64,000 nucleotides of DNA from Patescibacteria group bacterium (GCA_028714475.1 JAQTNC010000003.1:15596-79595), one strand, 5' to 3'; numbered from the stretch's first letter, positions 1 to 48,681 are shown. A program made the numbers and translations. The notes: generated by a model from the sequence alone, not told the origin.

Positions 1-451
1 AATTGCCGGCGGCCTTGATGTCAAAGGCATCGTGCAGCATCTGATGCTGGGCCGGATCGTTCTCGTCGAGCGCGAGGAAATTATCCTTGCCGACGATGTC
101 CGGCAGGACGAACAGGTATAGATGAAGGGCGTGATCGCGGACATTCAAACCGTCCATGGTGAGCCGCCGCAGTTCCAGCGTCTGCTCGGACGGCGTAATG
201 CCGGCCGCGCGTTCGCAGGCCTCGATGGCGCACATCTGATGGGCGTTTGAGCAGGTGCCGCAGATGCGCGACAGGAGTTGCGGCACGGCCATGAGCGGCT
301 TGCCTTCGATGCCCTTGGTATAGAAACGCTTGGCCTCGGCGATGACGTAATGGACGTATTCAACCTTGCCGGCGTCGTTAATGCGAACCGTGACGTCGGC
401 GTTGCCTTCGACCTTGGTCACGTGCTCCAGGGAGATATCTACATTGTGCAT
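1..451 (-). CDS. [NiFe]-hydrogenase large subunit, N-terminal part; the gene continues past the left edge of the window
   Basis: Minus-strand translation from the ATG at 451..449 gives MHNVDISLEHVTKVEGNADVTVRINDAGKVEYVHYVIAEAKRFYTKGIEGKPLMAVPQLLSRICGTCSNAHQMCAIEACERAAG..., which is open to position 1. It carries the N-terminal RxCGxCxxxH (L1) Ni-Fe ligand motif of [NiFe] large subunits. It is absent from the ORF track because it has no in-window stop codon. Confidence 0.75.
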   Translation of the reverse strand, partial: MHNVDISLEHVTKVEGNADVTVRINDAGKVEYVHYVIAEAKRFYTKGIEGKPLMAVPQLLSRICGTCSNAHQMCAIEACERAAGITPSEQTLELRRLTMDGLNVRDHALHLYLFVLPDIVGKDNFLALDENDPAQHQMLHDAFDIKAAGN

Positions 452-496
452 ATGGGTGGTGCAGGGATAAACCCTGCCGCTACGGTTTCATGTGGT

Positions 497-1009
497 TCAG
501 TTACCGGCCTGAATCTGGGCGATCAGCTTCGTGGCGGCCGCGACGAAGGCCTTGGGATCCATCGGGCAACCGCCGACTTCGGCGTCCACCTTGATGACCT
601 CGGAGAGCTTCTGAACCTTTGGGAAGGACTTGAAACGCGTCACCAAGAATTCGATCTCCTTCTTCTGCGCCTCCGAGAAGTTGTTGCGCTGGGCCGACGG
701 CATGCCGGTACAGGCGCAGGAACCGATGGCCACGACGATCTTGGCCAAGCCGCGGATTTTCTTCACCTCCTCGGCATGGTGGTCATTGGCGATGGCCCCC
801 TCGATGAAGGCGATGTCCATCGGCTCCCAGCGGTTGTTCGTCTGCAGGACGCGGGCGTGCACGAACTCAAGCAGGTTCTTCCAGTCCTGCCAATGGTCAT
901 TCAGGATTTCGGTGAAGACGATGGTGCTGTCCTCGCAGCAGGAGTACGAGAACCAGCCGACGCGGATTTTCTTGGCCGGCGCGACGGCCGGATTCGGAGT
1001 GTCAGTCAT
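497..1009 (-). CDS. [NiFe]-hydrogenase small subunit, minimal HoxY/NuoB-like form carrying only the proximal [4Fe-4S] cluster
   Basis: 170 aa. Contains the CCxxE (SYSCCEDS), GSCACTGM and GGCPMDP cysteine motifs typical of NuoB-like / HoxY-like small subunits. It lies immediately upstream of the large subunit. Confidence 0.75.
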   Translation of the reverse strand: MTDTPNPAVAPAKKIRVGWFSYSCCEDSTIVFTEILNDHWQDWKNLLEFVHARVLQTNNRWEPMDIAFIEGAIANDHHAEEVKKIRGLAKIVVAIGSCACTGMPSAQRNNFSEAQKKEIEFLVTRFKSFPKVQKLSEVIKVDAEVGGCPMDPKAFVAAATKLIAQIQAGN

Positions 1010-1034
1010 GGTCGTGACGGTAATTGTTCTTTCT

Positions 1035-2267
1035 TTAAAGAAGGGATTTGAGATCCACTGCCGGGTCGCCCAATTCCTTTAGCCGGCCGGACAGGTCCAC
1101 CTTGTTCTCGATGAGCTTCACGAGACAGCCGATTTCCGGCGTGCGGTTCAGAAGTGTCGCGCCCACGACGCGGTTGTCCTTGAGGATGACGCGGCCGTAG
1201 GCGTTCGCTTCGGCGGAGCCGCGCGGAACGACCTGGCGGCCGGGCACCGGCGCGACGTTGCCGACGAAGGCGATGTTGATGCCGAGCCCGGAAACCGCGT
1301 AGAAGGTGACGAGCTTGTACGGCTTCTTCTCCCCGGTCATGTTGGCGCCGGCCAGCTTGCCCTGCTGTTGGGCGTTGCTCCAGCTGCCGAATTGCACCGT
1401 CTCATCGAAAATCAGGTCGTGATATTCCGCCGCATCGCCCGCCGCCCAGACGTCCGGGACGCTGGTCTCCAGATATTCGTTTACGACCACGCCGCGGCTC
1501 ACCTTGACGCCGCCGTCCGCCGCCCACTTGTGCGGGCAAACGCCGCCGATGCCGACCGCCGCGACCTGACACGGGATGCGCGTGCCGTCCTCGAGCGTCA
1601 CGCCTTCCAGCCTTTCGCCGCCGGTCGCTTCCTTGACGTACTGGCCGCGATAGATCTTCACGCCGGCCTTTTCCAAAGCCGCCTCGATGATGTGGCCGGA
1701 CGTCTCGTCAAGAACCGGATCCCAATAATGCGGTTCACGGATGGAAAGCGCGGTCTCAAGACCCGACAGCCGGAACTGCTCGCACATCTCGAAGCCGATG
1801 GCGCCGCCACCCACGACAATCGCCTGCTTGGCGCCCTTCATGTCCTCCTGGATGCCGCGGAAATCGTCCACCGTGCGCACGTAATGCACGCCGCGCTTGT
1901 CCGCGCCAGGGATGCCCCAGCGACGCGCGCAAATGCCGAGCGCGAGCAGCAGCTTGTCATAAGCCAAAACGGTCCCGTCATCAAGCGTGACGGACTTCGC
2001 GGTTGCATCAAGCTTCGCGGCGGTCCGCCCGGCAATGAGGCGGATGTTGTTCTCCGGATACCACGATTCCTTCTTCAGCCAAATCTGTTCGAACGGCACC
2101 TTCCCGAGGAAGAAATGCGTCTTGGAAATCATGATGCGCGAATAAAGCCGGTACGGTTCGTCGGAGATGATGGTTATCTCCCCGTCCGGATCAGCCTTGC
2201 GGATGGTGTCGGCCGCTGTCGTGCCGGTGATGCCGCCGCCGATGATCAGATATCTGGTCGCGGCCAT
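1035..2267 (-). CDS. FAD-dependent pyridine nucleotide-disulfide oxidoreductase (NADH oxidase / rubredoxin-reductase-like); putative diaphorase partner of the hydrogenase
   Basis: 410 aa. N-terminal Rossmann motif IIGGGITG, a second GxGxxG (VVGGGAIGFE), and AAGDAA near the C-terminal dimerisation region. It sits in the same operon as the hydrogenase subunits. Confidence 0.85.
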   Translation of the reverse strand: MAATRYLIIGGGITGTTAADTIRKADPDGEITIISDEPYRLYSRIMISKTHFFLGKVPFEQIWLKKESWYPENNIRLIAGRTAAKLDATAKSVTLDDGTVLAYDKLLLALGICARRWGIPGADKRGVHYVRTVDDFRGIQEDMKGAKQAIVVGGGAIGFEMCEQFRLSGLETALSIREPHYWDPVLDETSGHIIEAALEKAGVKIYRGQYVKEATGGERLEGVTLEDGTRIPCQVAAVGIGGVCPHKWAADGGVKVSRGVVVNEYLETSVPDVWAAGDAAEYHDLIFDETVQFGSWSNAQQQGKLAGANMTGEKKPYKLVTFYAVSGLGINIAFVGNVAPVPGRQVVPRGSAEANAYGRVILKDNRVVGATLLNRTPEIGCLVKLIENKVDLSGRLKELGDPAVDLKSLL

Positions 2268-2275
2268 AGTCGTGA

Positions 2276-2551
2276 TTACGCTTCCGGGTAAACCTGCTTG
2301 CCCGTTTCGTCGTAGAGGAAAATCGCCTTGACCGGGCAGGACTGCGCGGCGATCAGCAGGGTGTCGTCGTCAACGGACGGATCCTCGAGCTGGGCGCGAT
2401 CAACCGGACCGGAAGAGCGCACGCCGTCCTTGAGCTTGTAGACGGCCTTGTTCTCGGCGTCCAGTTCCATGGCGGCAGGTGCGGCGACGACGCACGGGGT
2501 GGCGCCGATGCAGATGTCGCGCTTGACTTCGACTTTAGCGATTTTGGCCAT
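2276..2551 (-). CDS. Small ferredoxin (single [4Fe-4S]-type)
   Basis: ORF 2276..2644 trimmed to the internal ATG at 2551..2549 (MAKIAKVEVKRDICIGATPC...SCPVKAIFLYDE). Cys spacing matches a one-cluster ferredoxin. It is the first gene of the hydrogenase operon. Confidence 0.7.
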   Translation of the reverse strand: MAKIAKVEVKRDICIGATPCVVAAPAAMELDAENKAVYKLKDGVRSSGPVDRAQLEDPSVDDDTLLIAAQSCPVKAIFLYDETGKQVYPEA

Positions 2552-2587
2552 ATTTTGGCGGGTTATTGTTGATAAATCAGCTTTAAT

Positions 2588-2616
2588 AGTATAGCACGCC
2601 TCCCGCGTATTTGACA
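2588..2616 (-). promoter_or_regulatory. Sigma70-like promoter for the ferredoxin-hydrogenase operon
   Basis: On the minus strand: TGTCAA, a 17 bp spacer, then TATACT, located about 40 bp upstream of the ferredoxin ATG. Confidence 0.4.
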
Positions 2617-2669
2617 GCCAAGAACGGCAGGATTGCCGCTCCAATTATTTGATTTATTGCTTGGTGCCC

Positions 2670-2698
2670 TTGACAAAATCCTCTTAATCTGGCATAAT
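2670..2698 (+). promoter_or_regulatory. Consensus sigma70 promoter (TTGACA-17-CATAAT) driving the divergent plus-strand gene
   Basis: cccTTGACAaaatcctcttaatctggCATAATgc. The shared cccttgacaaaa box is also seen at 31268 and 36615. Confidence 0.55.
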
Positions 2699-2756
2699 GC
2701 GCCCAAACCGCGTTGCCGAAAAAACGGTGGACGCCACAAAAGAAAACGAGGCAAGA

Positions 2757-3752
2757 ATGCCGAACCCGCGACCCACGAGACGAGAACGACAAGAAAGTCT
2801 GGCCAGCGGCCTCGAAGCGACCGCGCTAAACCGCACGGCGGTGAGCGAGCACCACGCGACCGCAAAGGAAGCCCGACGACGCCCCTCGAAAATTGATCGC
2901 CAACGAAGTTTGGGCCGACGTCTCAACCGTGACATGTCGCCGCTCGAGATGAGCCGGCGCCTGGCCGAAGGCGAAAAGGAGCCCCTCCTCGTCTGCGAAC
3001 GCCTCATCCGCCTAGCCCAGCTTCTGGGCGAAAACCAGGCGGAACACGGACAAAGATGCGTCCTCATGGCGCTCGAGGAACTGGAAATCTACGGTCCGGC
3101 CATCGACGACTTCTATCGCCGACTGTGCGGCCAAAACATCGTCCTGACCTATGCCATCCTGCGAGCCTGTTCCAAGTCCGTGCCCGGCTTCACGATTCGG
3201 AAGCTGAAGGCCATGGTGCAGACAGCGCCGCCCGGCAGTCAGCTTTTCTACGACCAGACCCTCGCGGAACTGAAACGGATGTCCCCCCGTCTCATCGACT
3301 GGCAGCGGGCCGAAACGGAGTCACTGGCCTTGCTGAACGTCGTGGAACACCTCAATCCCGACCAGACCCTGGGCGAGATGATTGATATCTTGGCGGGCGA
3401 CGACGAACTGGCGCGGATAACGCTCGATCTGCTCCTTGGCCTGCCGGCCCTGCTCCGTGACGCGCCGTACGTTGCCGCCCAGCGCGCCATCCTTGCGGCC
3501 ATCGATGCCCTCGGCCTCATGGGCGAAGCCATCCATCGTTTCCACGCGCGTACCTGCGGCCGCAACGAACTTCTGACCTACGCGGTCCTGCGAGCAGTCT
3601 CGATGCGCATGCCTGGCTACGACGCCATTGTCGTCAGACGTTACTTTACGCCGGGTTCGGAACTGAAGCTCGACCAAACGGCTGTCCTTGCCGAACTTCA
3701 AGGCAAGATGCTGCGCTTCGATTGGGAGCGCGCCGCCGAAGCCTTGGTCTGA
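2757..3752 (+). CDS. Hypothetical protein built from two internally repeated halves (CGxN-x-LTYAxLRA...P(G)...KL repeat)
   Basis: ORF 2697..3752 with the start moved to the first ATG downstream of the promoter; a weak RBS gaggcaag precedes it. Two approximately 90-aa repeats (CGQNIVLTYAILRACSKSVPGF... and CGRNELLTYAVLRAVSMRMPGY...). No recognised domain. Confidence 0.6.
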   Translation: MPNPRPTRRERQESLASGLEATALNRTAVSEHHATAKEARRRPSKIDRQRSLGRRLNRDMSPLEMSRRLAEGEKEPLLVCERLIRLAQLLGENQAEHGQRCVLMALEELEIYGPAIDDFYRRLCGQNIVLTYAILRACSKSVPGFTIRKLKAMVQTAPPGSQLFYDQTLAELKRMSPRLIDWQRAETESLALLNVVEHLNPDQTLGEMIDILAGDDELARITLDLLLGLPALLRDAPYVAAQRAILAAIDALGLMGEAIHRFHARTCGRNELLTYAVLRAVSMRMPGYDAIVVRRYFTPGSELKLDQTAVLAELQGKMLRFDWERAAEALV

Positions 3753-4037: not shown

Positions 4038-6020
4038 TTACCTCCGCGGCAAACACTCCTCGCAGAGGCCGAGTTCCTTGAGGCGCTTGAGATAATCCAC
4101 CATGGTCTGGACGAAGGCGGCGTGGCTCCAGGTGAGCGGCGTGGCCGAGCACTGATCGCCAGTGACGGCATTGAGCTGTTCGGAGAGGACACCCGACGGC
4201 AGGGCGTGAGACGAAACCCAGGTCAGAATCTCCCGCGCGTCCGCCAAGCCGGCCTCGTCCTTGGCGCGGCGGATAAGGTACTGCGCGTACCAAAGCGTGC
4301 AGATGAACCACGGATTGCTCGGCGCGCCTTCGTGATCGCGGAAATAAACGTCACCGACATAGCGCGCGAGGCCCCCCGCCGGGCCCGGCGCCCACAAGGC
4401 GCTTTTCGTCGCCTCCCAAGCGCTCGCGAGCCGCGGATCGCCGCTGTCCAGGACGCCGAACTCCATCACGCCGAACACGGACGAAGCGTCAAGGGTGGCG
4501 TCGCGAACCATTTGACCATCTTCGGTCCAGCGCACGGACTTGAGGAACGCCCCAGACGCCTCGTCATACAGGTATTTTATGATGCCTTCCTTCACCTCGG
4601 CCGCAGCCTTCTCGTACCTCTCCTCGCGCAGATCCTTGCCGAGGATGCGCGAGAATTCCGCCGCCGCCTTGAGTCCGCCGTATACGGAAGCACAGGTGAA
4701 GGTATGCACGGCCCGTCGCTCTTCCCAGAGATCATACGACGGCCGCGGCAACAGCGTCTTTTCGTGCCGGTACTCAACCAGGAAATTCGCCGCTGGCCTG
4801 ATGAACGAGTTATAGATGGACTCGATGAATTCCAAGTCGTGCTTCTGCTGATAGTGGTTGAGCAGCGACATCAGGACGAGTGCCGTTTCGTCCTCCTGGA
4901 TCGGCAAGTGGGCATGGCCCTCGCCGATCCACGGATGCCATGACGAGCCGAGTGACTGGTCGCAGTTGTACTTGTGCATGAGATAGCCGCCCGGCATGAC
5001 GACGCTGTTGCAGAAACGGAAGAATTCCGGCGTGCTCTCAAAGTAGCCGCAAGAATCAAGTGCCTTGGCCACGAAGGCGCCGTCGCGCGGCCACATGTAG
5101 GCGTAGGTATCGCGGCCGTGCTGAAGAAAGTCGGAATCGGCGGCGGCGATGACCGCCCCGCGGTTGTCCACGTGCGTCCGGATGACGAGGAGCGAGGTGC
5201 GGAACAGGTCGGCGAGACTTTGGGGCAAACCCTGAAAATCAAAATGATAGACGTCGAGCCAGGCGCGCCAGAAATCCCCCGTGGTCTTGAGCAGGTGGTC
5301 CGGGGTTCGCTCGATGCAGTACTGATTGATTTCGCGCGCCTCGACCAGGCTGTGGCCGGCGGCAATCCAGTAATGGACGACTGACTCCCCCTTGGCCGGC
5401 AGGCGGAAGGAGACGCCGATGACCGAATCCACCGAACCGTGATCAACGGGATTCTTGGAGAGCACACCGTCCTCCGCGTCGCGCCAGGTACCCTCCAAGC
5501 CGCGATGGTGCGCCGTCCCGATGGCATAGTCGCTGATGGCGCCATTGCAGCACCGGGCATTGATGAGGAAAACGCGCCGGCCCTTGTATTGGACAACGAC
5601 GTTGTCCGTCGGGTCGTAGAAGGCGCTGTTGGCCGTCGTGGTCTCGGAAACCTGAAATTCCTGCGCGAAGAACAAGCGAGCCTCGCGGTCGTTGTCGCGA
5701 CGATTGCGCACGGCCACGCGGCGGATGAACAGGTCCTTCTCGTTGTAGACGATGTCGCGGAACTCCAGCTCCACGCCCAATTCGTCGTTCACCGCCGTGA
5801 CGAGTCCGACCATGGTGCCGGTCTCGTAGCGAACCGTCCGCCGCCAACTCGGGTCGTCCAGCCAGCGAAACGCGCCGTCCACCCACAATCCGACATGGTG
5901 CCGGTGACCGCCGACGTGGTTTTCCTGTCCGACGTGGTCGTAAAAAAGGTCTCGCACTATGCCTTGCGCGTCGAGACAGACGAGAAGCTGGCCGTTGCCG
6001 AGGACGATGGAGCGAGACAT
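4038..6020 (-). CDS. Glycoside hydrolase family 15 (glucoamylase / glucodextranase-like)
   Basis: 660 aa with a GH15-like (alpha/alpha)6 catalytic region (…WPRDGAFVAKAL…, …LWEERRAVHTFT…). Its neighbours are GH57 and GT4 genes. Confidence 0.85.
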   Translation of the reverse strand: MSRSIVLGNGQLLVCLDAQGIVRDLFYDHVGQENHVGGHRHHVGLWVDGAFRWLDDPSWRRTVRYETGTMVGLVTAVNDELGVELEFRDIVYNEKDLFIRRVAVRNRRDNDREARLFFAQEFQVSETTTANSAFYDPTDNVVVQYKGRRVFLINARCCNGAISDYAIGTAHHRGLEGTWRDAEDGVLSKNPVDHGSVDSVIGVSFRLPAKGESVVHYWIAAGHSLVEAREINQYCIERTPDHLLKTTGDFWRAWLDVYHFDFQGLPQSLADLFRTSLLVIRTHVDNRGAVIAAADSDFLQHGRDTYAYMWPRDGAFVAKALDSCGYFESTPEFFRFCNSVVMPGGYLMHKYNCDQSLGSSWHPWIGEGHAHLPIQEDETALVLMSLLNHYQQKHDLEFIESIYNSFIRPAANFLVEYRHEKTLLPRPSYDLWEERRAVHTFTCASVYGGLKAAAEFSRILGKDLREERYEKAAAEVKEGIIKYLYDEASGAFLKSVRWTEDGQMVRDATLDASSVFGVMEFGVLDSGDPRLASAWEATKSALWAPGPAGGLARYVGDVYFRDHEGAPSNPWFICTLWYAQYLIRRAKDEAGLADAREILTWVSSHALPSGVLSEQLNAVTGDQCSATPLTWSHAAFVQTMVDYLKRLKELGLCEECLPRR

Positions 6021-6095
6021 GGGGGTAGTTGGTAGTTTGTAGTTTTTAGTTTGTAGTCGGCATAACGCCCTACAAACTACAAACTCAACATATTA
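6021..6095. repeat. Promoter-proximal tandem plus inverted short repeat (TAGTTTGTAG units and their complement CTACAAACTAC)
   Basis: ggtagtttgtagtttttagtttgtagtcggcataacgccctacaaactacaaactc forms a hairpin directly 5' of the GH15 start codon. Confidence 0.5.
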
Positions 6096-6104
6096 ATTAT
6101 ACCA

Positions 6105-6135
6105 CAAAAAACCGCCCTGGCGGGCGGCTTTTTTG
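6105..6135. terminator. Bidirectional rho-independent terminator
   Basis: aaaaaaCCGCCCtggCGGGCGGcttttttg. The GC hairpin is flanked by A and T runs, and it lies downstream of the minus-strand gene 6140..6526. Confidence 0.8.
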
Positions 6136-6139
6136 TTGG

Positions 6140-6526
6140 TCATTTCTTCTTAGCGACGCGCTTAGCGGATTTTTTCGGCGCCGCGACCCGATCCAACTCA
6201 AGCAGGCGTTTCTCCAGCACCGCGACCGCGTCCGACATGGTGCGCGTTTTTTCCAAGCGCTCCGCTAGCGTCCGGTCGCCGATGACCTCGCGCACCCAGG
6301 CGGCCAGGTCGTTCTTGACGGCGTTCACGTGATGCTCGAAAACCTCGCGCGAGAAACGCGGCAGGACCGAGGCCATCTCCTTCAGGCTCCGCACCACCGG
6401 CCCCTGGCTCACCCAGAAGGCGCGGTAATCCGGCTCGACAATCGCGAGCCATTGGCGCGCCTCCTCCGGCGCCGGTTTTTTACCAGTGGCAGGCTTGGTT
6501 TTAGAAACGATTTTTTTTGTTGCCAT
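6140..6526 (-). CDS. Hypothetical lysine-rich protein
   Basis: 128 aa ORF with compact spacing to the GH57 gene. No recognisable domain. Confidence 0.55.
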   Translation of the reverse strand: MATKKIVSKTKPATGKKPAPEEARQWLAIVEPDYRAFWVSQGPVVRSLKEMASVLPRFSREVFEHHVNAVKNDLAAWVREVIGDRTLAERLEKTRTMSDAVAVLEKRLLELDRVAAPKKSAKRVAKKK

Positions 6527-6529
6527 AGG

Positions 6530-7735
6530 CTATGCTGTTGGTGCGGCTTGAACCCGCAGCCGTAAATCCTCGACGACGTTCATATAACTCACGAACGCGT
6601 CGTAGGGTGATTCGTAAGGATTGAAGTAAGCGTGTACGTCGCCGTCCGCGAACCATTTGGTGCACATGTAGTAGAAATGATCCGAGGTCTGCAAACGGCG
6701 CCAATCGTCGATGACGGCGGCATTGCCGGACTCGAGCACTGGCCGTTCCAGGGAATAGACGGTGTGAAGCGCGTCCTGCTGAAGGCGGTTGCCGCGCCAC
6801 GCGGTCAGGTCCCGCTCGATGTCGGCCCAGGAAACGTAGTCCGGCGCGTCAATCGCGCCGACCGGAGCGAAACGCTCGGCGATTTCCGACGGCGTCGCGA
6901 AGGTGTTGTCCGGATGCTTCAGGATTTCCGCGGGCATCGCTCGAAGGAAATCGAAGATGCCCGTGTCCTCCCACTGGTGCTCGCCGACGGTCTCGTAGTC
7001 CATGAAAAGGTTGACGTTGGTGCCGTTGCCGTTGATCTCGCCCACCCACTTGGCGAACTTCTCGGCCGTCAGCGGCCAGTCGTTCCACTGCCGAGACGAG
7101 AACCGGAAGGCGATGTCGTCGGACAGGCGATAGTTCTTGAGGAGCAGGGCGATTTTCCCGCAGCCGGCCGGGCGGTAAACGAAATCCGGGCTGCGCCAGC
7201 CGAGCAGGCGCTCCGCGCCCTCGGCGAGGACCGCCTTGAAGCCGAGCCGTTCGGCTTCGGCCGCCACCTCGTTCGAATAGATGAGCTCGGTATTGCGGAA
7301 GACCTGCGGCGTGACGCCGAAGAGCCTCTCCACCTTGGCGGTGTGCATGGCCACCTGTCGGCGAAACTCGTCGCGCGAATACAGGAACGACAGCGAGTGA
7401 TGGAAGGTCTCGGCCAGGATTTCCACGCGGCCGGTCGCGACCAAGTCGCGGAAGGAATCCAGCACGTCGGGCGCAAAACGCTCGAACTGCTCCAAGGCCA
7501 CGCCGGAAAAGGAATAAGCCAGCCGGAATTCGGGATGACGCGTCAACAATTCGAGCATCAGCCGGTTGGCCGGCAAATAACACTTGCGCGCCACCCGTTC
7601 GAGGATGAAACGGTTGTTGAGCGACGACGGCGCCTCGTCATTGAAGTAGTCGTGATCGCGGCCGATGCCGAAATGCGCGTACTTCTTGACGCGGAACGGC
7701 TGGTGCACCTGAAAATATAGGCAAATGGCGGGCAT
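6530..7735 (-). CDS. Glycoside hydrolase family 57 (alpha-amylase / 4-alpha-glucanotransferase-type)
   Basis: 401 aa. The N-terminal YFQVHQPFR motif and the overall pattern are typical of GH57. Confidence 0.85.
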   Translation of the reverse strand: MPAICLYFQVHQPFRVKKYAHFGIGRDHDYFNDEAPSSLNNRFILERVARKCYLPANRLMLELLTRHPEFRLAYSFSGVALEQFERFAPDVLDSFRDLVATGRVEILAETFHHSLSFLYSRDEFRRQVAMHTAKVERLFGVTPQVFRNTELIYSNEVAAEAERLGFKAVLAEGAERLLGWRSPDFVYRPAGCGKIALLLKNYRLSDDIAFRFSSRQWNDWPLTAEKFAKWVGEINGNGTNVNLFMDYETVGEHQWEDTGIFDFLRAMPAEILKHPDNTFATPSEIAERFAPVGAIDAPDYVSWADIERDLTAWRGNRLQQDALHTVYSLERPVLESGNAAVIDDWRRLQTSDHFYYMCTKWFADGDVHAYFNPYESPYDAFVSYMNVVEDLRLRVQAAPTA

Positions 7736-7737
7736 GA

Positions 7738-7768
7738 TTTTAGGTTCTAGGTTCTAGGTGCTAGGTTC
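7738..7768. repeat. Tandem octamer repeat (GGTTCTAG x4) between the GT4 stop and the GH57 start
   Basis: ttttaggttctaggttctaggtgctaggttctagtgg. Confidence 0.5.
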
Positions 7769-8982
7769 TAGTGGCCAGACAACAAATTTTCATAAACCTT
7801 CTTGCAGCGGGCGCCGGCTTCGGCCCAACTGCGGCGGGCCACCTCGCGGGGCGCCTCGACGGCCAAGGTCTCGCGCAAGGCCGGATAACGCAGGATGGCG
7901 ATGATCTTCGCGGCCATGTCATCAACATCCCAGAAGTCGGTTTTCAGGCAATGCCGTGCCACCTCGCTCACGCCGGACTGCCGGGAAATCACCGACGGCA
8001 AGCCATATGACTGTGCTTCGAGACAGGTCAGCCCGAACGGCTCGGACACGGACGGCATCACGAAAACGTCGGCGTTCGCGTACGCCGCGGTCAATTCCGC
8101 GCCGCGCAGGAAACCGAGGAAATAAAAACGGTCGGCCACGCCCATCTCTTGGGTCAGTGCTTTCAGCTCGCCTTCCATCTCTCCGGAACCGGAGATGACG
8201 AACGCGGCTTCGGGAATGGCTTCGCTCACGCGGCGGGCGGCCCGCACGAGATAATCCACGCCTTTCTGGATGGTCAACCGACCGACGAAGAGCACGATTT
8301 TTCGACCCTGCCGCTTCAGTTCTGCGATGGCGGCCGGCGGCACGCCGGGCTCGCCAAGCGAATCGCTGGCGTTATGAACGACGGCGATCTTGTCCTCCGG
8401 CACGCCGTAACGCTCGACGAGAATGCGTTTCGTAAAGCCGCTGATGGCAACGACGGCGTCAGCCGCCTCGAAACCGAGCCGTTCGATGTCGTAAACGTCT
8501 TGGTTGGGCAAACCGCCGCCGGTACGGTCGAACTCGGTGGCATGGACATGCACGACGAGCGGCTTGCCGCTCACGCGCTTGGCCTCAAGGCCGGCCAGGT
8601 ACGTCAACCAGTCATGGGCGTGAATGACGTCGTGCGGCTCCTCGGCGGCGATGCGTCCGGCCTGCCGCGCGTACCAGAGAACCTTTTCATATAGGCTGCC
8701 GCCGCCGAATCCGCTGCGACCGACAAAACGCAAACGCCCGCGGAAACGCGCCGCGGGTCCGTATGGGTTGTACAATTCCTCGAATGGACGGCCGTTGGGT
8801 CGTCCGGTCGGGTCAGCAAAGCGAATGCGCGCCGTCGCGCCTTCGGTGTCCATCTTTTCGGGTAACACGAAAGTCACGTCCACACCGACCTCGTGCAAGC
8901 CGCGCACAAGACCCTTGCAGGCGATGCCCAAACCGCCAGCATAATGAGGCGGGAATTCCCACCCAAACATCAGGACGCGCAT
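7768..8982 (-). CDS. Glycosyltransferase family 4 (group-1 GT; putative alpha-glucan / glycogen synthase-like)
   Basis: 404 aa. N-terminal GT-B donor fold (MRVLMFGWEFPPHYAGGLG) and C-terminal EPFGLT..E..G.P GT4 motifs. Confidence 0.85.
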   Translation of the reverse strand: MRVLMFGWEFPPHYAGGLGIACKGLVRGLHEVGVDVTFVLPEKMDTEGATARIRFADPTGRPNGRPFEELYNPYGPAARFRGRLRFVGRSGFGGGSLYEKVLWYARQAGRIAAEEPHDVIHAHDWLTYLAGLEAKRVSGKPLVVHVHATEFDRTGGGLPNQDVYDIERLGFEAADAVVAISGFTKRILVERYGVPEDKIAVVHNASDSLGEPGVPPAAIAELKRQGRKIVLFVGRLTIQKGVDYLVRAARRVSEAIPEAAFVISGSGEMEGELKALTQEMGVADRFYFLGFLRGAELTAAYANADVFVMPSVSEPFGLTCLEAQSYGLPSVISRQSGVSEVARHCLKTDFWDVDDMAAKIIAILRYPALRETLAVEAPREVARRSWAEAGARCKKVYENLLSGH

Positions 8983-11460: not shown

Positions 11461-14400
11461 TTAGCCTTTCAACGGCAAATCAAACCAGAAGACGCTGCCT
11501 TTCCCCTCCTCGCTCGTGAAGCCGATGCGCCCGCCGTGCTGTTCGATATAATGCTTGGCGATGGACAAGCCAAGTCCTGAAGCGTCTGGCCTCGCGAGCA
11601 GGGCGTTGGTGGCGCGATAGAAACGGCCGAAGACGCGCGGCTGTTCGACGGCCGGGATGCCGATGCCGGTGTCCGCCGCCTCAAACCGAACCCGATCACC
11701 CACGATTCCCAACTTGGCCTTGACCGTGCCGCCGGCCGGCGTGTACGTGATGGCGTTATCAAGAATGACCCGCAGCGCTTCGCGGATCTTTTCCGCGTCA
11801 ATCAGCAATGACGGCATCTCGACGGTCGGCGGCTGGTACTCGACATGCACGTTCTTGGCTTGGCCGGCCCGCACCACCTCCGACATGACGGAAGTGCAGA
11901 GGTCGCCCAGGCCGGTTTCCTCCTTGTTGAGATTAAAGCGGCCCTCCTCGATATCCAAGGCCGCCACCATTTCGCGGATGCGGGCGATGATGGCCGTGTC
12001 CGCGTCCAAGACGACCTGGACGAAATTCTTCTGTTCGGGCTTGAGCTCACCAACCTCGCCTGACAGAAGCGATTCCAGACTCCAACGCATGGAGGTGAGC
12101 GGCATGCGCAGCTGATGTGATACGACCTGGATGAACTTGTGCCGCAGCCGATCGGTCTCGCGCAGGTGCTCCTCAACCTGATGTTTTTCGGTGATGTCCT
12201 CGATCAGGCCGTCCACGACTGCCTCGCCGCTTTCGCTGGTTTTCCCGAACAGCGTCAGCTTGGCCCAAAGCTCCTTGCCCCGACTGGTCCGCATTCTTGT
12301 CTCCGCGTTGCGCAGTTCCCCGGCCTGCTTGACGTCGCCGAGCAGCCGCCGGTATTCCGCGCCGTCGACGAAATACGACTCGACCGATGTCGGCGACAGC
12401 TGTTCAAACGAAGGGACGTCCAAAATGCGGTAAAGCGCCGCGTTGGCAAGCGTGAACCGGTTCGGCGCCGCAACGGTCACGCGGAAAACGCCGGCATTGA
12501 GGTTGTCGAGCAGATACTCGTAGCGACGCCGGGCTTCGGACAGGCGCGCTTCCGCCAGCCGACGCTCGGTGATGTCCTCAATGATACCGTCGTAAAAAAC
12601 CTGGCCGTCCTTTTTCAGGCGGACGGAACTCACGCTGACCCAGATTTCTCGCCCCTTGAGCGTCTTGAGCGGCATCTCGAAATTGCGGATCAAGCCCTTT
12701 TCGGCCATTACCTTCTCAAAGCGCTCGTTGTCCGCGGCATCGCGATAGATGGCGGCGGCCGGCAAGCCTTCGGCCTGCCGGCGGTCGGTGCCGTCAAAAA
12801 TCCGCACGAAAGCGTCGTTACATTCGACCAGCTTGCCGTCGAGACCGGGTGTGCGACGATAAATGCCGACCGTCAGGCTGTCCACGAGCGAGACGTAACG
12901 GGACTGCGATTCGGCCAAGGCGGTTTGGGTCTGCTTGAGGTCCGTGACGTCCACGTCCAAACACACGGCTTGTTGCTGCCCCCCTTCGCCGACGCTGAAG
13001 ACGGTGGACAAGACGTTTCTCATGGCGCCGTTACGGGTTCGCAACTCGCGCTCCGTCGGCCCGGCCGTCTGGCCGGTTTTCATGACGCCCAACAAGGTTC
13101 GGCTGAAAACGGACGCCGTCTTCGCTTCGAAACCCAACTGTTCCACGGTCTTGCCAGCGACTTCCCCGGTCGCGTAACCGTAAAGGCTTTCCGCCGCCCG
13201 ATTCCAGAAAACCAGCCGTCCCTGCCGGTCAAACAGGCTGATGGCTATTTGCGGCGTATTGCTGATGATGTTGCGGAACCCTGCCTCGCTCTGCCGCAAG
13301 CCTTCTTCCGTGCGCACGCGATCGGAGATGTCGCGCAGAACGCTGATGATGCCAGTGGTCTGTCCGCTCTCGTCGCGCTGCACGCGACTCGAAGCCTCGA
13401 CCCACAACACTTCGCCGCGGTCGTTGATGATGCGGAAGCGCGACGGCGTTTCATCGCCCTCCATGACGGAGCGGAAGTGTCCGGTCTCAATTCGCTGGCG
13501 ATCGTCGGGATGAACGTAGTTGAAGATCGATTGGTTCGTCATCGCCGAATCGATGCCGAAATTCCTCTGGAGGGCCGGGCTGAAATAAGTCACCGTGCCT
13601 TTCGGATCAATCTCCAGAATCGCGTCGCGCGACGTCTCGATGATTGATCGGTAGCGCTTTTCGCCGGCCGCCAGCTTTTCCCGGATTCCCCGCCAGTCAG
13701 TGACGTCGTGAGCCACGCCTTGCCCGCCCGTCATGACGCCATCCTGGCCACGGAAAGGGCTGGTCACGAATTCCAGCCAAACGTCACGCCCAGCCCGATC
13801 GCGAAAGCTGAACTCGGCCTTGCCCTCCCGGCCAGTTTTCATGATCTCGTCGAGGTAAGCCACGGCCTGCTCCTGATCGTCAGGCCGAAAGAGTTCCTTG
13901 ACCGGGCGACCGACCAGGCGCTGGGCATCCAGGCCGTAACGGGCCGCACCGGGACCGATAAAGGTCAGGTTCTTTTCCTGATCGAACGAATAAACCAATT
14001 CCGTGGCATTCTCGATGATCTGGCGGTAACGGCGTTCGCTCTCCGAGGCCGCCAAGACCGCCCGCTTGCGGTCCGTGACGTCCCGGATGGTCCAAAGAAC
14101 GATGTTCTGGCCGCCCAACTGCAAGGGAACGGTGATTATTTCCGCCGGTACGGTGGATCCGTCCTGCTTAGTCAGCATGAGATCGAAAGGCCCGGCGGCC
14201 TGACCCACGACGGACTTGGTCAGGATTTGCGTCGTCACGGCCGTCCCCAGCTTTTCCAAGACGCGTATCTTGAAGATGCTGACGCCAACCGTCTCGCCGT
14301 GGGTGTAGCCGGTCAGGAGCTCCGCCAAACGATTGGTGTCCTGGATGAAACCGTGCGCATCCGTCAGCACCAGCCCTTCCGGGGAAACCTCGAAAAAGGC

Positions 14401-15537
14401 CTTGAAGCGCTCTTCGGAAAGCTGCAGTTCCTCGGCCGCCTTTTTCCGATCGCTGATGTCATGGGCGATGCCGGCCAAACCGCGTACCGTGCCGTCGGCA
14501 TCATGAATCGCCGAGACGACTACCTCGAACCACTTGTCCGAATCGGCAGCCGACCATTGGACTTCCAGTTCGGCACTGGGACGAACGCCGGAGAGCACCT
14601 CGTCAACCGCCTTGGTCAGCGCCTGGCGATCCGCCTCGGCCACGACGGCCGCCATCGGCTGACCTATCATCGCCGAGGCGTCCAGACCGTGCCGCCCCGC
14701 TTGCGGACTCACGTAATCGAAACGTCCGTCCTTACCCAAGGAAAAGATTATGTCCCGCTGGTTCTCAACGTAGGCGCGGTAACGGCGTTCGCTGGCCGCC
14801 AGGTCAGCGGCCTTCTTTTCCACCTCGCGCTCCAAGTGATCGTGAACCGCCGCCAGGCGTTCAGCCATGTCATTGAAGGATTCGGACAAGGTGCCGATCT
14901 CGTCGCTGCCCGGCACCGAAACGCGCGTCGAGAAATCTCCGCCGCCGAACCGTCGCACGCCGGAGGTCAAAGCCACGATCGGCGCGGTCAACTGCCGCAG
15001 AATCAGGAATAACAGCAAGGCCAAGGCGCCGAGTACCGACAGCAGGACGATGACATCAGCGGCCATGATGGTGTATCGGAAGCCCTGCAATTCCTTAAGG
15101 CTAAAACCCATCACGACCTGCCAGGTCTCGGCGCCCACGGTCACCGGCGCGACATACAGGCCGAAGGCCTGGCCCGTTTCCAGCCGAATCTGTTCCCCGG
15201 CGGGTGCAACATCCAAGCCCGGAAAATAATCGACCGCCCGCGTGCCCATGAAATCCGTCCGGTCAGCCAAGCTGATGGTGCCGCTGTCGTTAATAAGCCA
15301 CCAGAACAGCAGATCCTCCCGTTCCTTTAGCCGCTCCAGGCTCTCGAACGGCCACTGGCCGCTTCTTGCGCCAGCCGTCAATTCGCTGGTCAGAAAATCC
15401 CCGGCCAAGCGCACCTCGCGCAAATAGTAGGTTTCCGCCTGATTGGCTTGCCAAGAATAAACCGCCGCCATGACGATAACCGTGACCGCCATGACCGTTA
15501 CGAGAACGGCAAAAAAGATTTTTGTGAGGAGTTTCAC
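11461..15537 (-). CDS. Membrane-anchored multi-PAS sensor histidine kinase (2 TM helices, extracytoplasmic domain, HAMP, about 7 PAS/PAC, HisKA, HATPase_c)
   Basis: 1358 aa. N-terminal TM (MKLLTKIFFAVLVTVMAVTVIV) and a second TM. Repeated PAS signatures, an H-box (...FIQVVSHQLRMPLTSM...) and G1/G2 ATPase boxes at the C-terminus. Confidence 0.9.
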   Translation of the reverse strand: MKLLTKIFFAVLVTVMAVTVIVMAAVYSWQANQAETYYLREVRLAGDFLTSELTAGARSGQWPFESLERLKEREDLLFWWLINDSGTISLADRTDFMGTRAVDYFPGLDVAPAGEQIRLETGQAFGLYVAPVTVGAETWQVVMGFSLKELQGFRYTIMAADVIVLLSVLGALALLLFLILRQLTAPIVALTSGVRRFGGGDFSTRVSVPGSDEIGTLSESFNDMAERLAAVHDHLEREVEKKAADLAASERRYRAYVENQRDIIFSLGKDGRFDYVSPQAGRHGLDASAMIGQPMAAVVAEADRQALTKAVDEVLSGVRPSAELEVQWSAADSDKWFEVVVSAIHDADGTVRGLAGIAHDISDRKKAAEELQLSEERFKAFFEVSPEGLVLTDAHGFIQDTNRLAELLTGYTHGETVGVSIFKIRVLEKLGTAVTTQILTKSVVGQAAGPFDLMLTKQDGSTVPAEIITVPLQLGGQNIVLWTIRDVTDRKRAVLAASESERRYRQIIENATELVYSFDQEKNLTFIGPGAARYGLDAQRLVGRPVKELFRPDDQEQAVAYLDEIMKTGREGKAEFSFRDRAGRDVWLEFVTSPFRGQDGVMTGGQGVAHDVTDWRGIREKLAAGEKRYRSIIETSRDAILEIDPKGTVTYFSPALQRNFGIDSAMTNQSIFNYVHPDDRQRIETGHFRSVMEGDETPSRFRIINDRGEVLWVEASSRVQRDESGQTTGIISVLRDISDRVRTEEGLRQSEAGFRNIISNTPQIAISLFDRQGRLVFWNRAAESLYGYATGEVAGKTVEQLGFEAKTASVFSRTLLGVMKTGQTAGPTERELRTRNGAMRNVLSTVFSVGEGGQQQAVCLDVDVTDLKQTQTALAESQSRYVSLVDSLTVGIYRRTPGLDGKLVECNDAFVRIFDGTDRRQAEGLPAAAIYRDAADNERFEKVMAEKGLIRNFEMPLKTLKGREIWVSVSSVRLKKDGQVFYDGIIEDITERRLAEARLSEARRRYEYLLDNLNAGVFRVTVAAPNRFTLANAALYRILDVPSFEQLSPTSVESYFVDGAEYRRLLGDVKQAGELRNAETRMRTSRGKELWAKLTLFGKTSESGEAVVDGLIEDITEKHQVEEHLRETDRLRHKFIQVVSHQLRMPLTSMRWSLESLLSGEVGELKPEQKNFVQVVLDADTAIIARIREMVAALDIEEGRFNLNKEETGLGDLCTSVMSEVVRAGQAKNVHVEYQPPTVEMPSLLIDAEKIREALRVILDNAITYTPAGGTVKAKLGIVGDRVRFEAADTGIGIPAVEQPRVFGRFYRATNALLARPDASGLGLSIAKHYIEQHGGRIGFTSEEGKGSVFWFDLPLKG

Positions 15538-15547: not shown

Positions 15548-18500
15548 TCAGTGGTTTTGGGGTTGCATGACGACGTCAGTCAAGGGCCGGTGTTGGGCCG
15601 AATCAACCGGCAACTCGAACCAGAAAGTGCTGCCTTCGCCTTCAGTGCTTTCGAAACCAAGTCGGCCCCCATGGCGTTCAGCGAAATAACGGGCGACGTA
15701 CAGCCCGAGTCCCGATGAATCCGGTTTCATGAGCGGCGCGTTGGTGGCGCGATAGAACCTTTCGCCGATGCGGTGCTGTTCGGCCCGCGGGATGCCAATG
15801 CCTCGGTCGGCCACCTCAAAACGGATGGCTTGAGGCGAAAACGACAGCTTGACGGTGATGTGACCGTTTGACGGCGAATAATCGACGGCGTTTTCGAACA
15901 GGGCGGTCATGGCCAGCCGCACCTTGTCCGGATCGGCGTAAACGACGGGCAACGGCCCGGTCGGTTTCACCAAATCCACCGTCAGGATCTTGGCCGCACA
16001 TCGGCTAGCCAGGGAACGGTGAACCGCTTCCCACAGGCTGTCCGCCGAAAACTCCTCTCGATTCAGGACGGTGCGCCCTTCCTGGATGTCCACCGCCGTC
16101 AGCATTTCGCCGATATTCCTGATGACGTCATTGGTCTCGTCACGAACCACCCGCAGGAATTCCTTCTGCGCCGACGGCAGTTCGCCTATTTGACCCTCAA
16201 GCATGGCCTGGATATTCCAGTTCACTGACGCGAGCGGCATCCGCAACTGTTGGGAAACGAACTGATTAAGCTTGTTCTGCAGCCGCTCGGCGTCGCGCAG
16301 CCGCCCTTCAGCCTGCCGGCTGGCGGTGATGTCCTGAACCAAACCATCCAGATAGGCGTGGCCAGCCGCGTCGGTCTGCCGACTGACCGATAACCTTACC
16401 CAGATCTTCCGCCCCTTGAAGGTCTTCACCATGATTTCCTCGTTCTTGAGTTGGCCTATATCGTTCAGCCTGGCTAGCATCTGGCCCCAAGCGGACTCGT
16501 CGACCCTCAAGTCGTTAAGCGGCAAGGTCAACAGATGTTCCAGCGAATCGACCTCGAGCAGGCTGACGGCCGCCGGATTGGCGTATAGGAACTTCCCCTC
16601 TGGGTCGGCCAAACACCGGAAAACGCCGACCGGCAAGCCGGACAACAACGTCTGACTGCGCTCGCGCTCCTCGGCCAATTGCGTTTCCGTCTGCCGCCGC
16701 TCGGTGATATCCTCGACGATGCAGTCGAAATAACCGCCGCTCGGCCCGCGCCGATACACGGCCGTAACCTCGCACAAAATTGGGCGACCCTTCAGTGTCC
16801 TTAGCTGCAAAGGGTAGTCGCGCAATGTCCCCTTTTCCTGCAAATCCTTCTCAAAAGCCTCACGGTCACGGTCGTTGACATACAGGTCGGCAATGGGATG
16901 ACTGTTCAACTCATCCCGCGAGGCCGCCTCGAACATGACGGCGGCGGCGTCATTCAGATCGACGAACCGGCCTTGCGGCCCGGGCGTCCGGCGATAGACG
17001 GCGACCGCGAGGTTGTCGAGCAGGGAGGCATACCTCTGTTGCGATTCCGCGAGTGCCTCCTCGGCGACACGCCTTTCGGTGACGTCACGCAAGGCCCCGA
17101 TGACCCCGTGCGGCTGGCCGTGCTCGTCCAAACGCTGTCGGACGACGGCCTCAAGCCAAACCGCCCGCTCACCGTCGCGCTTCAGGCGCACGATGACGGG
17201 CTGGCCGGACGGATGGCCGCCGTGAGCCATCTCGTCCCGCATCTGCTTTTCCACCCTTGGCCGGTCCTCGTCGGCGACGAAATCCATCAGGGGACGACCG
17301 ACGGCCTTTTCCGGCATCAAGCCCAAGCGGCTGGCCTGGGGACTGACGTAATCCAGGATGCCTTTCGGGTCAACACTGAAAACCACGTCATAAACGTTCT
17401 CGGCCAACAGGCGATAGCGCCGTTCGCTCTCCGCGAGTGCCTTCTCCGCCTCGTGTCGTTCGGTGATGTCGCGCACGAGCGAGATGACGCCGACCGGACG
17501 ACCCTGCTCGTCGCGCTGGACGCGCCCAATCTCCTCGACCCAGAAAATCTTTCCTTGAGGGCTGACGATGCGCATCTGCATCGGGTGCTGTTCGCCGGTG
17601 GTCAGCGTCATCTGGAGTTCCGCCGCGACCCGCTCCCGATCATCCGGATGGATGACTTCCAGGATGTTCCTCCCGATGTCGCCCGGCCCGTAACCGAACC
17701 GGCTGGCTTGCGGACTCAAGAAGGTGATGCGGCCGGTGCCGTCCACCACGTTCACCACGTCACTGGAGCCTTCGACGATGGCGCGATAACGCGCCTCGCT
17801 TTCCATGAGCGCCCCCTCCGCCAGCTTGCGTTCGGTGATGTCGTGAAGAACGCCGGTCAAGCCGATGATTTTCCCTGCCGGGTCGCGCTGGACGTGGTCC
17901 GACTCTTCCATCCAATGAACGTTGCCGGACCGGTCACGCACGCGGAACTCAATACGCACCTCCTCGCCGGTCTCCATCTCTCTCGTGAACATCGCCGCGA
18001 CATTTTCTGCGTCCTCCGCGACAATCAAGCCAATCTCCATGAACGACCGGCCCACGATCTCCTCCGGCGCCCGGCCTAACCGTCGGCATTGGGGGCTGAC
18101 GTAGGTGACCTTGCCGTCGCGATCAAGCGTAAAGATGATGTCCGGGCTGTTCTCGGCAAAGGCGCGGTAGCGAGCCTCGTTTTCGGCAAGTGCCTTCCCG
18201 GCCTTGACGCGGTCGGTGATGTCGCGGGCTATGCCCAACATCATCCGCCGACCCTGCGCCTCAACGGGATAAGCCGTGATCTCGATGCTGATGATGTCGG
18301 CGTGATTCGGCACCTTCGCGCTGAAAACCGTCGGCGGAACCGGCTGGCCGGACGCAACCATTTGGTTGATGCCTTGCAGGATTTTTTCGTCCTCGGGCGT
18401 AGCCGGATCGGTCTTGGCTGCCACCTGGCCGATCAAATCCTCACGGCTCACGCCGTTCAGGGCCGCCATCTGATAATTAACGTCCACGAAGGCGCCTGTT

Positions 18501-47918: not shown

Positions 47919-47992
47919 TGGCGGGGGCTGTAGGAGTCGAACCTACCACAGCGGTTTTGGAGACCGCAGTTATACCGATTAACTAAACCCCC
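47919..47992 (-). tRNA. tRNA-Trp (anticodon CCA)
   Basis: Manual fold: acceptor GGGGGTT / AGCCCCC, anticodon loop CTCCAAA, T-arm GTAGG-TTCGACT-CCTAC, encoded CCA. Followed by a strong hairpin cacaaattccccc...gggggaatttgtg at 47882..47920. Confidence 0.85.
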
Positions 47993-48118
47993 ATGAATAA
48001 CTGGCTGACTGTCGTTAATTTCCAAAGGGTGAAGCTGGGTCGCCTTAATGCTACGGAACGTAGAATACTTTAGCCACTATCCCAAGGCTTGGCAATACCA
48101 AACGAAAGAGAGCCACCA

Positions 48119-48364: not shown

Positions 48365-48371
48365 AGCGTGG

Positions 48372-48593: not shown

Positions 48594-48681
48594 ATAATCC
48601 CATGTTAATCTTTAGATTAACCTTATTGTAACCCCCTGTCGCCCTCCAAGTCAACACCGCGATACGTACAATAAATAAATC

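Follow-up and report, generated by a model that had tools for sequence, protein, structure and literature searches.

The hydrogenase operon and its catalytic subunits

The 64,000-nucleotide stretch of DNA from a Patescibacteria group bacterium analysed in this study (JAQTNC010000003.1:15596-79595; referred to below as the window) begins with four collinear genes on the minus strand (1..2616), which encode, in the direction of transcription, a ferredoxin, a flavoprotein, a hydrogenase small subunit and a hydrogenase large subunit and are separated by intergenic gaps of 8, 25 and 45 nt. The 91-residue ferredoxin (2276..2551, minus strand) matches the Pfam family Fer4_15 (E 3.6e-9), the 410-residue FAD flavoprotein (1035..2267, minus strand) matches Pyr_redox_2 (E 3e-53), Pyr_redox (1.6e-12) and Reductase_C (2.6e-7), and the 170-residue small subunit (497..1009, minus strand) matches Oxidored_q6 (E 1e-20). 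The N-terminus of the large subunit (1..451, minus strand; 150 codons) matches NiFeSe_Hases (E 5e-11) and leaves the window at its left edge. These positions and matches confirm the four-gene hydrogenase operon that an initial annotation of the window had reported, and the motifs quoted in that annotation were all found, namely SCCED (residues 23-27), GSCACTG (96-102) and GGCP (146-149) in the small subunit and RICGTCSNAH (62-71, the L1 motif) in the large subunit. The large subunit was missing from the list of open reading frames (ORFs) because the gene runs past the window edge, as had been supposed. A promoter-like site, which is a match to the consensus only, is located 36 nt upstream of the ferredoxin ATG (2588..2617, minus strand; CTGTCA-18 nt-TATACT, with a TG before the -10 hexamer and 9/12 matches); two such sites were observed in 3 kb versus 0.7 expected from shuffles, and no terminator-like site was found on the operon strand. 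The identities of the four proteins, their intact metal ligands and the conserved synteny of their genes are established here.

The full-length large subunit (P0001, 432 residues) was obtained from public contigs by homology search, and is identical to the window translation over residues 1-150 and, over 354 residues, to a 4.4-kb public contig (L001) carrying the same operon, which was found by exact-match look-up of the small subunit. An identical (100%) small subunit is also recorded in NCBI as PHT12_01515 from a Patescibacteria group bacterium. The C-terminus of P0001 ends in ...RAYDPCMSCASHFLKVNWLG and includes DPCMSCASH, so that the C-terminal DPCxxC motif, which the initial annotation had left to be verified, is present, and the loss of these Ni ligands, named there as a refutation, does not apply. 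A scan of one genome per species identified relatives in at least 565 genomes, and the best 80 loci were examined; these belong to Patescibacteria or to unclassified metagenome-assembled genomes (MAGs), with the exception of a few bins from TPA assemblies that carry the label Gammaproteobacteria, and the closest relatives of the window hydrogenase are all Patescibacteria MAGs. In 80/80 large-subunit relatives Cys64, Cys67, Cys418, Cys421 and His424 are invariant, and a tail of 6-8 residues is conserved after the C-terminal His. The large subunit therefore keeps all four cysteines predicted to bind Ni and Fe, with N- and C-terminal motifs that would be those of the catalytically competent type.

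The best PDB match of P0001 is the α-subunit of Pyrococcus furiosus SHI (9nez_D; 2e-66), with which it is collinear end to end and shares 33% identity over 417 aligned positions, followed by Mvh (7e-48), HydL (7t2r; 6e-40), Hox (7e-38) and, at nearly the same level, Frh (2e-37). The order of similarity is thus group 3b, then 3c, then HydABCSL, 3d (Hox) and 3a (Frh), with groups 1 and 2 far behind, and neither group 4 nor NuoD appears in the PDB and NCBIfam hit lists. The NCBIfam models gave the same impression, with ShyA/HydA at 239-249 bits ahead of VhuA at 141 and FrhA at 131. The large subunit thus appears closest to the characterized group 3b enzymes, as judged by PDB matches and by NCBIfam scores that lie far below the equivalog cutoffs of 700-880 bits.

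The small subunit (170 residues; family median 166) is matched in NCBIfam by HydD (4.5e-18) and FrhG (1e-15), and aligns only with residues 3-147, that is, the N-terminal ~150 residues, of the 261-residue δ-subunit of P. furiosus SHI. Its top 120 homologs are all single-domain proteins of 147-186 residues; apparent long ORFs were considered as fusions and rejected, since they are upstream start-codon extensions. Among 68 small-subunit sequences Cys24, Cys98, Cys148, Glu26 and Asp27 are invariant and Cys25 is present in 60/64, and these four cysteines are the only conserved ones. The GSCACTG motif emphasized in the initial annotation does occur in the window protein, but its second cysteine (Cys100) is found in just 13/68 sequences and is mostly replaced by Val. 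The family motif S-C-C-E-D-[NS]-T takes the place of S-C-Y-G-C in SHI δ and of G-C-T-G-D in FrhG; the tandem cysteines recall NuoB, in which cluster N2 is held by adjacent cysteines. An AlphaFold2 (AF2) model of the small subunit (pLDDT 82.6) superimposes on the whole length of HoxY (5xf9_C; TM-scores 0.70/0.67) and HydS (7t2r_E; 0.68/0.65) and covers about half of SHI δ (0.67/0.45), with NuoB/PSST and MbhJ ranking next. The small subunit is thus of the size of HoxY and HydS and probably carries the sites of the proximal cluster only, as had been proposed and as the short alignment and the four conserved cysteines support; with a proximal cluster only, it would therefore require an external Fe–S partner. 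No twin-arginine (Tat) motif was found in the small subunit. The assignment to a cytoplasmic group 3-type enzyme is upheld by this result, by the group 3b sulfhydrogenase α- and δ-subunits as best PDB and NCBIfam matches and by the lack of membrane subunits in 80 related neighbourhoods.

The flavoprotein and the ferredoxin

The flavoprotein contains two Rossmann domains (motifs IIGGGITG and VVGGGAIGFE) and a Reductase_C domain (31.5 bits versus a cutoff of 25), and by these features and its matches it appears to be an FAD-dependent ferredoxin-NAD(P)+ reductase (FdR) of the PdR/BphA4/PuR type, within the glutathione-reductase-like family that also includes AIF. In the PDB, palustrisredoxin reductase (PuR; 3fg2, 2e-46), ArR (3lxd), BphA4 and PdR are the best matches (all 1e-38 to 2e-46), and AorC (8c0z_E) is matched at 3e-33, while the best NCBIfam matches are PadH (1e-64; 219 bits versus an equivalog cutoff of 475), HcaD, the N-terminus of NirB and AndAa. 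The initial annotation had described the protein as an NADH-oxidase-like disulfide oxidoreductase, a label that fails on three counts: the Reductase_C domain, the ferredoxin reductases as best matches and the lack of an active-site cysteine. NADH oxidases and CoA-disulfide reductases (CoADRs) match at ~1e-21 to 1e-26, which is 15-25 orders of magnitude weaker, and none of the cysteines is conserved at the Nox/CoADR active-site position (Cys42/43) among 55 FdR orthologs, in which the motif EPxxLYSRxMLSKP occurs instead. Cys233 is the only semi-conserved cysteine of the family (47/55), and there is no conserved cysteine pair. Since the flavoprotein has no redox-active cysteine, it is not expected to be an NADH oxidase or a disulfide reductase. 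In the alignment with 3fg2, the canonical Glu position is occupied by a hydrophobic residue, followed by the conserved pair Arg177-Glu178, and is ambiguous as to NADH versus NADPH.

The same observations bear on the proposal that the module is a sulfhydrogenase or an NAD(P)H sulfur or persulfide reductase, in which a flavoprotein of the NSR/CoADR/Npsr type would pass H2-derived electrons to S0, polysulfide or CoA persulfide. Relatives are annotated by their sources as 'sulfhydrogenase' or 'hydrogenase/sulfur reductase', and the flavoprotein shares PF07992 with CoADR and NSR and weakly matches the CoA-persulfide reductase 8a56 (5e-25). However, the AsrA/AsrB-like β- and γ-subunits, which are sulfite-reductase-related in the Pyrococcus enzyme, are absent, and the missing Cys42/43 and cysteine pair, the Reductase_C domain and the far better matches to ferredoxin reductases all speak against it. 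Given the missing catalytic cysteine, the sulfur-reductase reading appears to be largely refuted, and we consider it very improbable.

The ferredoxin contains the motif C14-I-G-A-T-P-C20 followed by C72-P, that is, a CxxAxxC...CP pattern in which Ala occupies the place of the fourth ligand. Cys14, Cys20 and Cys72 are invariant in 51/51 orthologs, no other cysteine is invariant, and Ala17 is found in 49/51. This three-cysteine pattern is one which we take to be of the [3Fe–4S] type, as in P450-type ferredoxins, and the protein would therefore be a single-cluster ferredoxin whose cluster is, by its motif, probably [3Fe–4S]. Its gene lies directly upstream of that of FdR in 50 of the 55 loci that contain FdR. 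In the compact loci L005, L007, L019 and L056, no uncalled ferredoxin ORF was found upstream of FdR. In L005 (5855-6270, plus strand; Parcubacteria), where the ferredoxin gene is missing, a small uncalled cysteine-rich ORF (MAEEKLFKCAKCAKEKKKEEGMYVLEGTAFCCKECCGVPSKNERKEKKANVCEFC) is situated in its place.

Gene neighbourhood, proposed electron transfer and maturation

Neighbourhood counts were obtained by ORF clustering and BLAST for 82 non-redundant loci. FdR is present in 55/82, which bears out the proposal of the initial annotation that an FAD protein and a ferredoxin are the partners of the hydrogenase; of the 27 loci without FdR, 15 extend <3 kb upstream. The window is one of 28 loci in which FdR is directly upstream of the small-subunit gene and abuts it with gaps of 12-218 nt. 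At least 2.5 kb of upstream sequence is available for 24 of them, and 17 of these 24 have no NifS, NifU or Nfu gene directly upstream; the link between FdR and the hydrogenase therefore persists without NifSU. Across the 82 loci this ferredoxin is the sole recurrent small Fe–S protein and FdR is the sole recurrent nucleotide-binding flavoprotein. The absence of HoxFU and HydBG partners likewise holds for the window and the related neighbourhoods: no AsrA/AsrB-like β/γ family or NuoEFG-like family recurs in the 82 loci, and none was found in the window operon or in the Pfam-annotated neighbourhoods of L003-L009. The claim that the partners are co-transcribed stands for the window, but in about half of the relatives the ferredoxin and FdR genes form a separate unit with NifS/NifU.

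On balance, we favour with moderate confidence the interpretation that the product of the operon is a soluble, cytoplasmic [NiFe]-hydrogenase of two subunits, which belongs to the Patescibacteria-specific, group 3b-related hyd2 clade (see below) and in which the ancestral diaphorase has been replaced by an FdR and [3Fe–4S] ferredoxin chain, providing a reversible route between NAD(P)H and H2. FdR and the small [3Fe–4S] ferredoxin would stand in for the β/γ (AsrA/AsrB-like) subunits as well as for the domain of the small subunit that carries the medial and distal clusters. The electron would be transferred from NAD(P)H to the FAD of FdR, further to the [3Fe–4S] cluster of the ferredoxin, then to the proximal [4Fe–4S] cluster, which may be held by the tandem Cys24-Cys25, Cys98 and Cys148, and finally to the Ni–Fe site for the formation of H2, the proposed path being reversible. 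The ferredoxin is most likely a shared hub that also accepts electrons from 2-oxoacid:ferredoxin oxidoreductase (OFOR), because a two-subunit OFOR lacking its own ferredoxin domain shares the gene cluster with an ADP-forming acetyl-CoA synthetase (ACD) in many relatives. A fermenting, non-respiring cell could thus vent the electrons of NAD(P)H and of 2-oxoacids as H2, and gain ATP from acetyl-CoA. The cluster types, the direction of electron flow, the stable or transient docking of the ferredoxin and the preference for NADH or NADPH are what we infer here.

Several observations weigh against this interpretation. Six loci with at least 8 kb of upstream sequence show no FdR, and FdR occurs without a ferredoxin in cis in four or five compact loci. 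In 27 of the 55 loci the ferredoxin and FdR genes lie outside the hydrogenase transcription unit, and in 21 of these 27 they are preceded, on their own strand, by NifS-NifU-(Nfu); they could therefore serve Fe–S assembly or act as a general redox pair. No fusion of ferredoxin or FdR to the small subunit was found among its 120 closest homologs or in the 82 loci, and neither the surrounding 10 kb in the 80 loci nor the 64-kb window showed any HypA-F genes. In addition, the potential of [3Fe–4S] clusters is often too positive to reduce protons, and the formation of H2 from NAD(P)H is uphill unless H2 is kept low.

In an alternative that we regard as rather unlikely but still worth serious consideration, the hydrogenase would depend on ferredoxin for fermentative H2 evolution and receive its electrons from OFOR-reduced ferredoxin, and FdR would not be one of its subunits. 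Ferredoxin and FdR would be a general redox pair (for Fe–S assembly with NifS/NifU, like Fdx/FdxR in ISC, and for exchange between ferredoxin and NAD(P)+), and a shared redox island would be the sole reason for their proximity to the hydrogenase. Of the 27 separated loci, 21 (L024, L025, L030, L037, L039-L041, L044, L045, L055, L066, L067, L070, L074, L076, L078-L080, L082, L084 and L086) do show such an island in a recurrent order: NifS, NifU, (Nfu,) ferredoxin and FdR on one strand, then ACD, OFOR β and OFOR α on the opposite strand, and then the small and large subunits on the first strand. The OFOR of these loci is of the two-subunit type without a Fer4 domain, and no extra docking domains were found on the small subunit among its 120 closest homologs, both of which agree with this alternative. 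Against it, FdR abuts the small-subunit gene in the 28 loci described above, mostly with no Nif gene directly upstream. The transfer from ferredoxin to the small subunit is shared by this alternative and by the NAD(P)H-linked chain that we favour; only the role of FdR differs.

The favoured chain may also be read in the opposite direction, with H2 from the host or the community being oxidized to give reduced ferredoxin and NAD(P)H in a cell that has little other access to reductant. Its proposed chemistry is reversible, group 3 enzymes are bidirectional, and many of the source samples are, according to their record titles, groundwater or sediment, where H2 is available. The clustering with OFOR and ADP-forming acetyl-CoA synthetase and the glycogen/starch genes of the window fit fermentative electron disposal better, and we consider H2 uptake improbable as the main function.

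Convergent genes downstream of the hydrogenase encode DUF6390 (56 of the 82 loci), a HycI-like protein of ~125 residues (55) and an EamA transporter (35). The HycI-like family, exemplified by L003:9344-9709 (minus strand), which is convergent with the large-subunit gene, has no precomputed Pfam match in public gene tables; PF01750 matched 18/32 members, and the GN..D, D and HD positions are invariant. A profile search of the family against PDB sequences returned no protease match. A HycI-type protease agrees with the conserved residues that extend the large subunit beyond its C-terminal His. A NicO-like Ni permease is encoded beside or between the hydrogenase genes in four loci (L048:6968-7654, plus strand; L018; L026; and one more), and together the HycI-type protease and this permease argue for an active Ni enzyme.

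DUF6390 (PF19927, ~243 residues; for example L003:9706-10437, minus strand, and L090:2626-3357, plus strand) is as conserved as the large subunit, with identities of 60-89%. The window organism has both EamA and DUF6390, as seen in L090 from the same sample and also on the NCBI contig of the identical small subunit. The AF2 model of DUF6390 (pLDDT 74.8) contains a C-terminal OB-like β domain, the top PDB match of which is HypC from Thermococcus kodakarensis (2z1c_B; probability 1.0, TM-score 0.71 on the target, E 6e-3). At the start of this domain an invariant cysteine in D-x-C-R-I-S-W-G-K-V recalls the N-terminal M-C-x-x-x-P-G-K-V of HypC. In 17 loci (e.g. L076:11401-11853, plus strand) the large-subunit gene is directly followed by one for a cysteine-containing protein of ~150 residues, which has no Pfam match and is remotely homologous to DUF6390 (hhalign probability 96%, E 1.7e-9). 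This protein is shorter than DUF6390 and retains its motif at the N-terminus and the part at the C-terminus that resembles HypC; some loci have both proteins and others only the ~150-residue one. From this modelled likeness, DUF6390 is a candidate for a lineage-specific chaperone of the large subunit, and offers a lead on the insertion of the NiFe cofactor in reduced genomes. Our literature searches found nothing on DUF6390 and nothing useful on Hyp genes in the Candidate Phyla Radiation (CPR). A syntenic downstream block in six loci (families f18-f25), the protein sizes of which resemble HypE/F/A/B/D, was examined as a possible hyp operon and rejected, its Pfam matches being PAP2, Dus, ClpB, SerRS and FtsQ-like.

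The HycI-like and HypC-like proteins also bear on the suggestion that the module is degenerate or non-catalytic (Ehr-like or sensory), or that it belongs to a membrane-bound complex of group 4, the remaining subunits of which are encoded beyond the window; the latter was named in the initial annotation as a finding that would overturn its classification. The NuoB-like tandem cysteines, the match of the small-subunit model to NuoB/PSST and MbhJ, the absence of Hyp genes nearby and the presence of large PAS histidine kinases 11-22 kb away in the window may be cited in its favour. However, the 80 relatives show no variation in the four Ni/Fe cysteines or in the His at the cleavage site, the HycI-like protease and the HypC-like protein are conserved beside the genes, and sensory hydrogenases have no C-terminal extension. 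The large subunit ranks with group 3 and has no group 4 match in the hit lists, and no Nuo/Mrp-like membrane subunits were found within 10 kb in the 80 loci, where no membrane subunits recur apart from the EamA transporter. Nothing group 4-like was seen, and both forms of the suggestion are highly improbable.

A broader reading can be entertained tentatively, as a possibility clearly behind the NAD(P)H-linked chain itself: hyd2 may constitute a separate subgroup of the group 3 [NiFe]-hydrogenases that has yet to receive a name, and the smallest known modular form, with a two-subunit core, a free [3Fe–4S] ferredoxin as the direct partner replacing the lost medial and distal clusters, links to NAD(P)H through FdR and to 2-oxoacids through OFOR, and maturation aided by lineage-specific HypC-like proteins (DUF6390 and its short paralog), possibly with a reduced or non-canonical Hyp set in Patescibacteria, whose genomes are reduced.

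Other features of the window are as follows. A glycogen/starch cluster (4038-8982, minus strand) encodes a GH15 glucoamylase-like protein (660 residues), a DUF5752-like protein (128 residues), a GH57 protein (401 residues) and a GT4 glycogen-synthase-like protein (404 residues), and fits sugar fermentation feeding the hydrogenase; in L003, the closest long relative, the region upstream of the operon contains GH57, a protein of ~112-128 residues and GH15 with their relative order preserved. Divergent from the operon is an ORF of 351 residues (2697-3752, plus strand) with no Pfam match and an apparent internal duplication of two ~40-residue segments (...C-G-[QR]-N-x-x-L-T-Y-A-[IV]-L-R-A...). Its first start codon falls within a promoter-like site close to the consensus (TTGACA-17-CATAAT, 2670-2698), and its real start is therefore probably further downstream. 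Two adjacent sensor histidine kinases of 1358 and 2354 residues (11461-15537 and 15548-22612, both on the minus strand), the larger with at least 13 PAS domains and GAF, are an unusual load for a Patescibacteria genome, which is presumably small. The minus strand also carries a cluster of four tRNA genes at 47919-49861 (Trp-CCA, Thr-TGT, Tyr-GTA and Thr-GGT).

Comparison with known systems

A large part of bacterial diversity belongs to the ultra-small Patescibacteria, which are non-respiring and almost all uncultured, and the redox balance of their fermentation is inferred from genes alone. Two CPR clades of hydrogenases related to group 3b were described by Jaffe et al. 2020 (BMC Biol 18:69, PMC7304191). 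One of them, hyd2, has truncated small subunits (mean 164 residues) and no proximal β/γ subunits; some of its members have nearby fam013 proteins with PF07992, a subset has the Fe–S family fam390 nearby, and a HypC-homologous family is a neighbour, while its function was left 'uncertain' (PMC7304191). The window operon shares all of this: it is from Patescibacteria, its small subunit has 170 residues, it has no β/γ subunits, and it has PF07992, Fe–S and HypC-like neighbours, the fam002 (HypC-like neighbour) of hyd2 probably being the DUF6390 protein described here. It thus fits hyd2 by every described feature, as a comparison of features rather than of tree position, and the novelty of the partner combination implied by the initial annotation does not hold, since the arrangement fits this already described clade (PMC7304191). 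The identities of the FdR-type reductase and the three-cysteine ferredoxin, the co-occurrence counts, the S-C-C-E-D motif and the OFOR/ACD/NifSU/HycI context are added here. The papers after Jaffe et al. 2020 that were covered by our search treated the four-subunit form or merely counted 'group 3b' enzymes; Valentin-Alvarado et al. 2024 modelled a four-subunit hyd1-type enzyme, which is unlike this one. Our search found no literature linking a ferredoxin reductase to CPR hydrogenases beyond Jaffe et al. 2020.

The operon thus appears to be a real and correctly read member of a known but uncharacterized clade, and the hypothesis on its wiring has been sharpened rather than proven. The hyd2-type clade is widespread, and the routine labels 'sulfhydrogenase' and 'F420-reducing hydrogenase' both fail to fit it by gene content. 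If the FdR/[3Fe–4S] wiring is true, four proteins would connect NAD(P)H to H2, OFOR would bring in the electrons of 2-oxoacids, and the cells would be H2 producers for partners or neighbours. The module would also be about the smallest NAD(P)H-linked NiFe hydrogenase for which biotechnological expression could be attempted.

Among the characterized enzymes, those of group 3b (P. furiosus SHI and T. kodakarensis Hyh; 9nez, 5yxy) are the most similar in the core, as the large subunit is collinear with theirs and shares their L1 motif, their C-terminal motif and the short extension after the His, and the flavodoxin-like domain of the small subunit has its best sequence match there. However, the β (Fe–S) and γ (FAD/[2Fe–2S], AsrB-like) subunits of the heterotetramer are missing here, and the small subunit lacks the C-terminal ~90 residues of the δ-subunit (~250-260 residues) that carry further clusters and has CC-E-D in place of CxxC. 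Group 3d HoxFUYH and bifurcating HydABCSL (5xf9, 7t2r) share with the present enzyme a small subunit of similar size, HoxY and HydS having 178-179 residues and the proximal cluster only (TM-scores 0.65-0.70), whereas their NuoE/F/G-like FMN/Fe–S acceptors were not found in the present operon and the large-subunit match is weaker (1e-38 to 1e-40 versus 1e-66 for 3b). The group 4 energy-converting hydrogenases resemble it only in the tandem cysteines and the fold of the small subunit (NuoB, MbhJ), and differ in the large subunit and in having membrane subunits.

For the partner proteins, the comparison leads to a different set of systems. Two-component chains of FdR and ferredoxin normally feed class I P450s and Rieske dioxygenases, and the pairs PdR-Pdx, BphA4-BphA3 and actinobacterial FdR with [3Fe–4S] Fdx, together with PuR (3fg2) and ArR (3lxd), share the reductase fold and domain set with the present operon, the ferredoxin of which has the CxxAxxC...CP pattern typical of [3Fe–4S] P450 ferredoxins. 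They differ in that the terminal partner here is a hydrogenase and not an oxygenase, and in that the nucleotide-site residues of the present FdR are unusual. A further comparison is with PadH of phenylglyoxylate:NAD+ oxidoreductase (phenylglyoxylate dehydrogenase) and AorC of the tungsten aldehyde oxidoreductase from A. aromaticum, which are FdR-type FAD subunits within multi-subunit oxidoreductases. In these enzymes the FdR-type flavoprotein couples NAD(H), via ferredoxin-like Fe–S proteins, to a low-potential catalytic core. The hyd2 enzyme would instead have a NiFe hydrogenase as its core, served by a free ferredoxin with a single cluster in place of a polyferredoxin subunit; by analogy, PadH and AorC may serve as precedents for the working principle proposed here.

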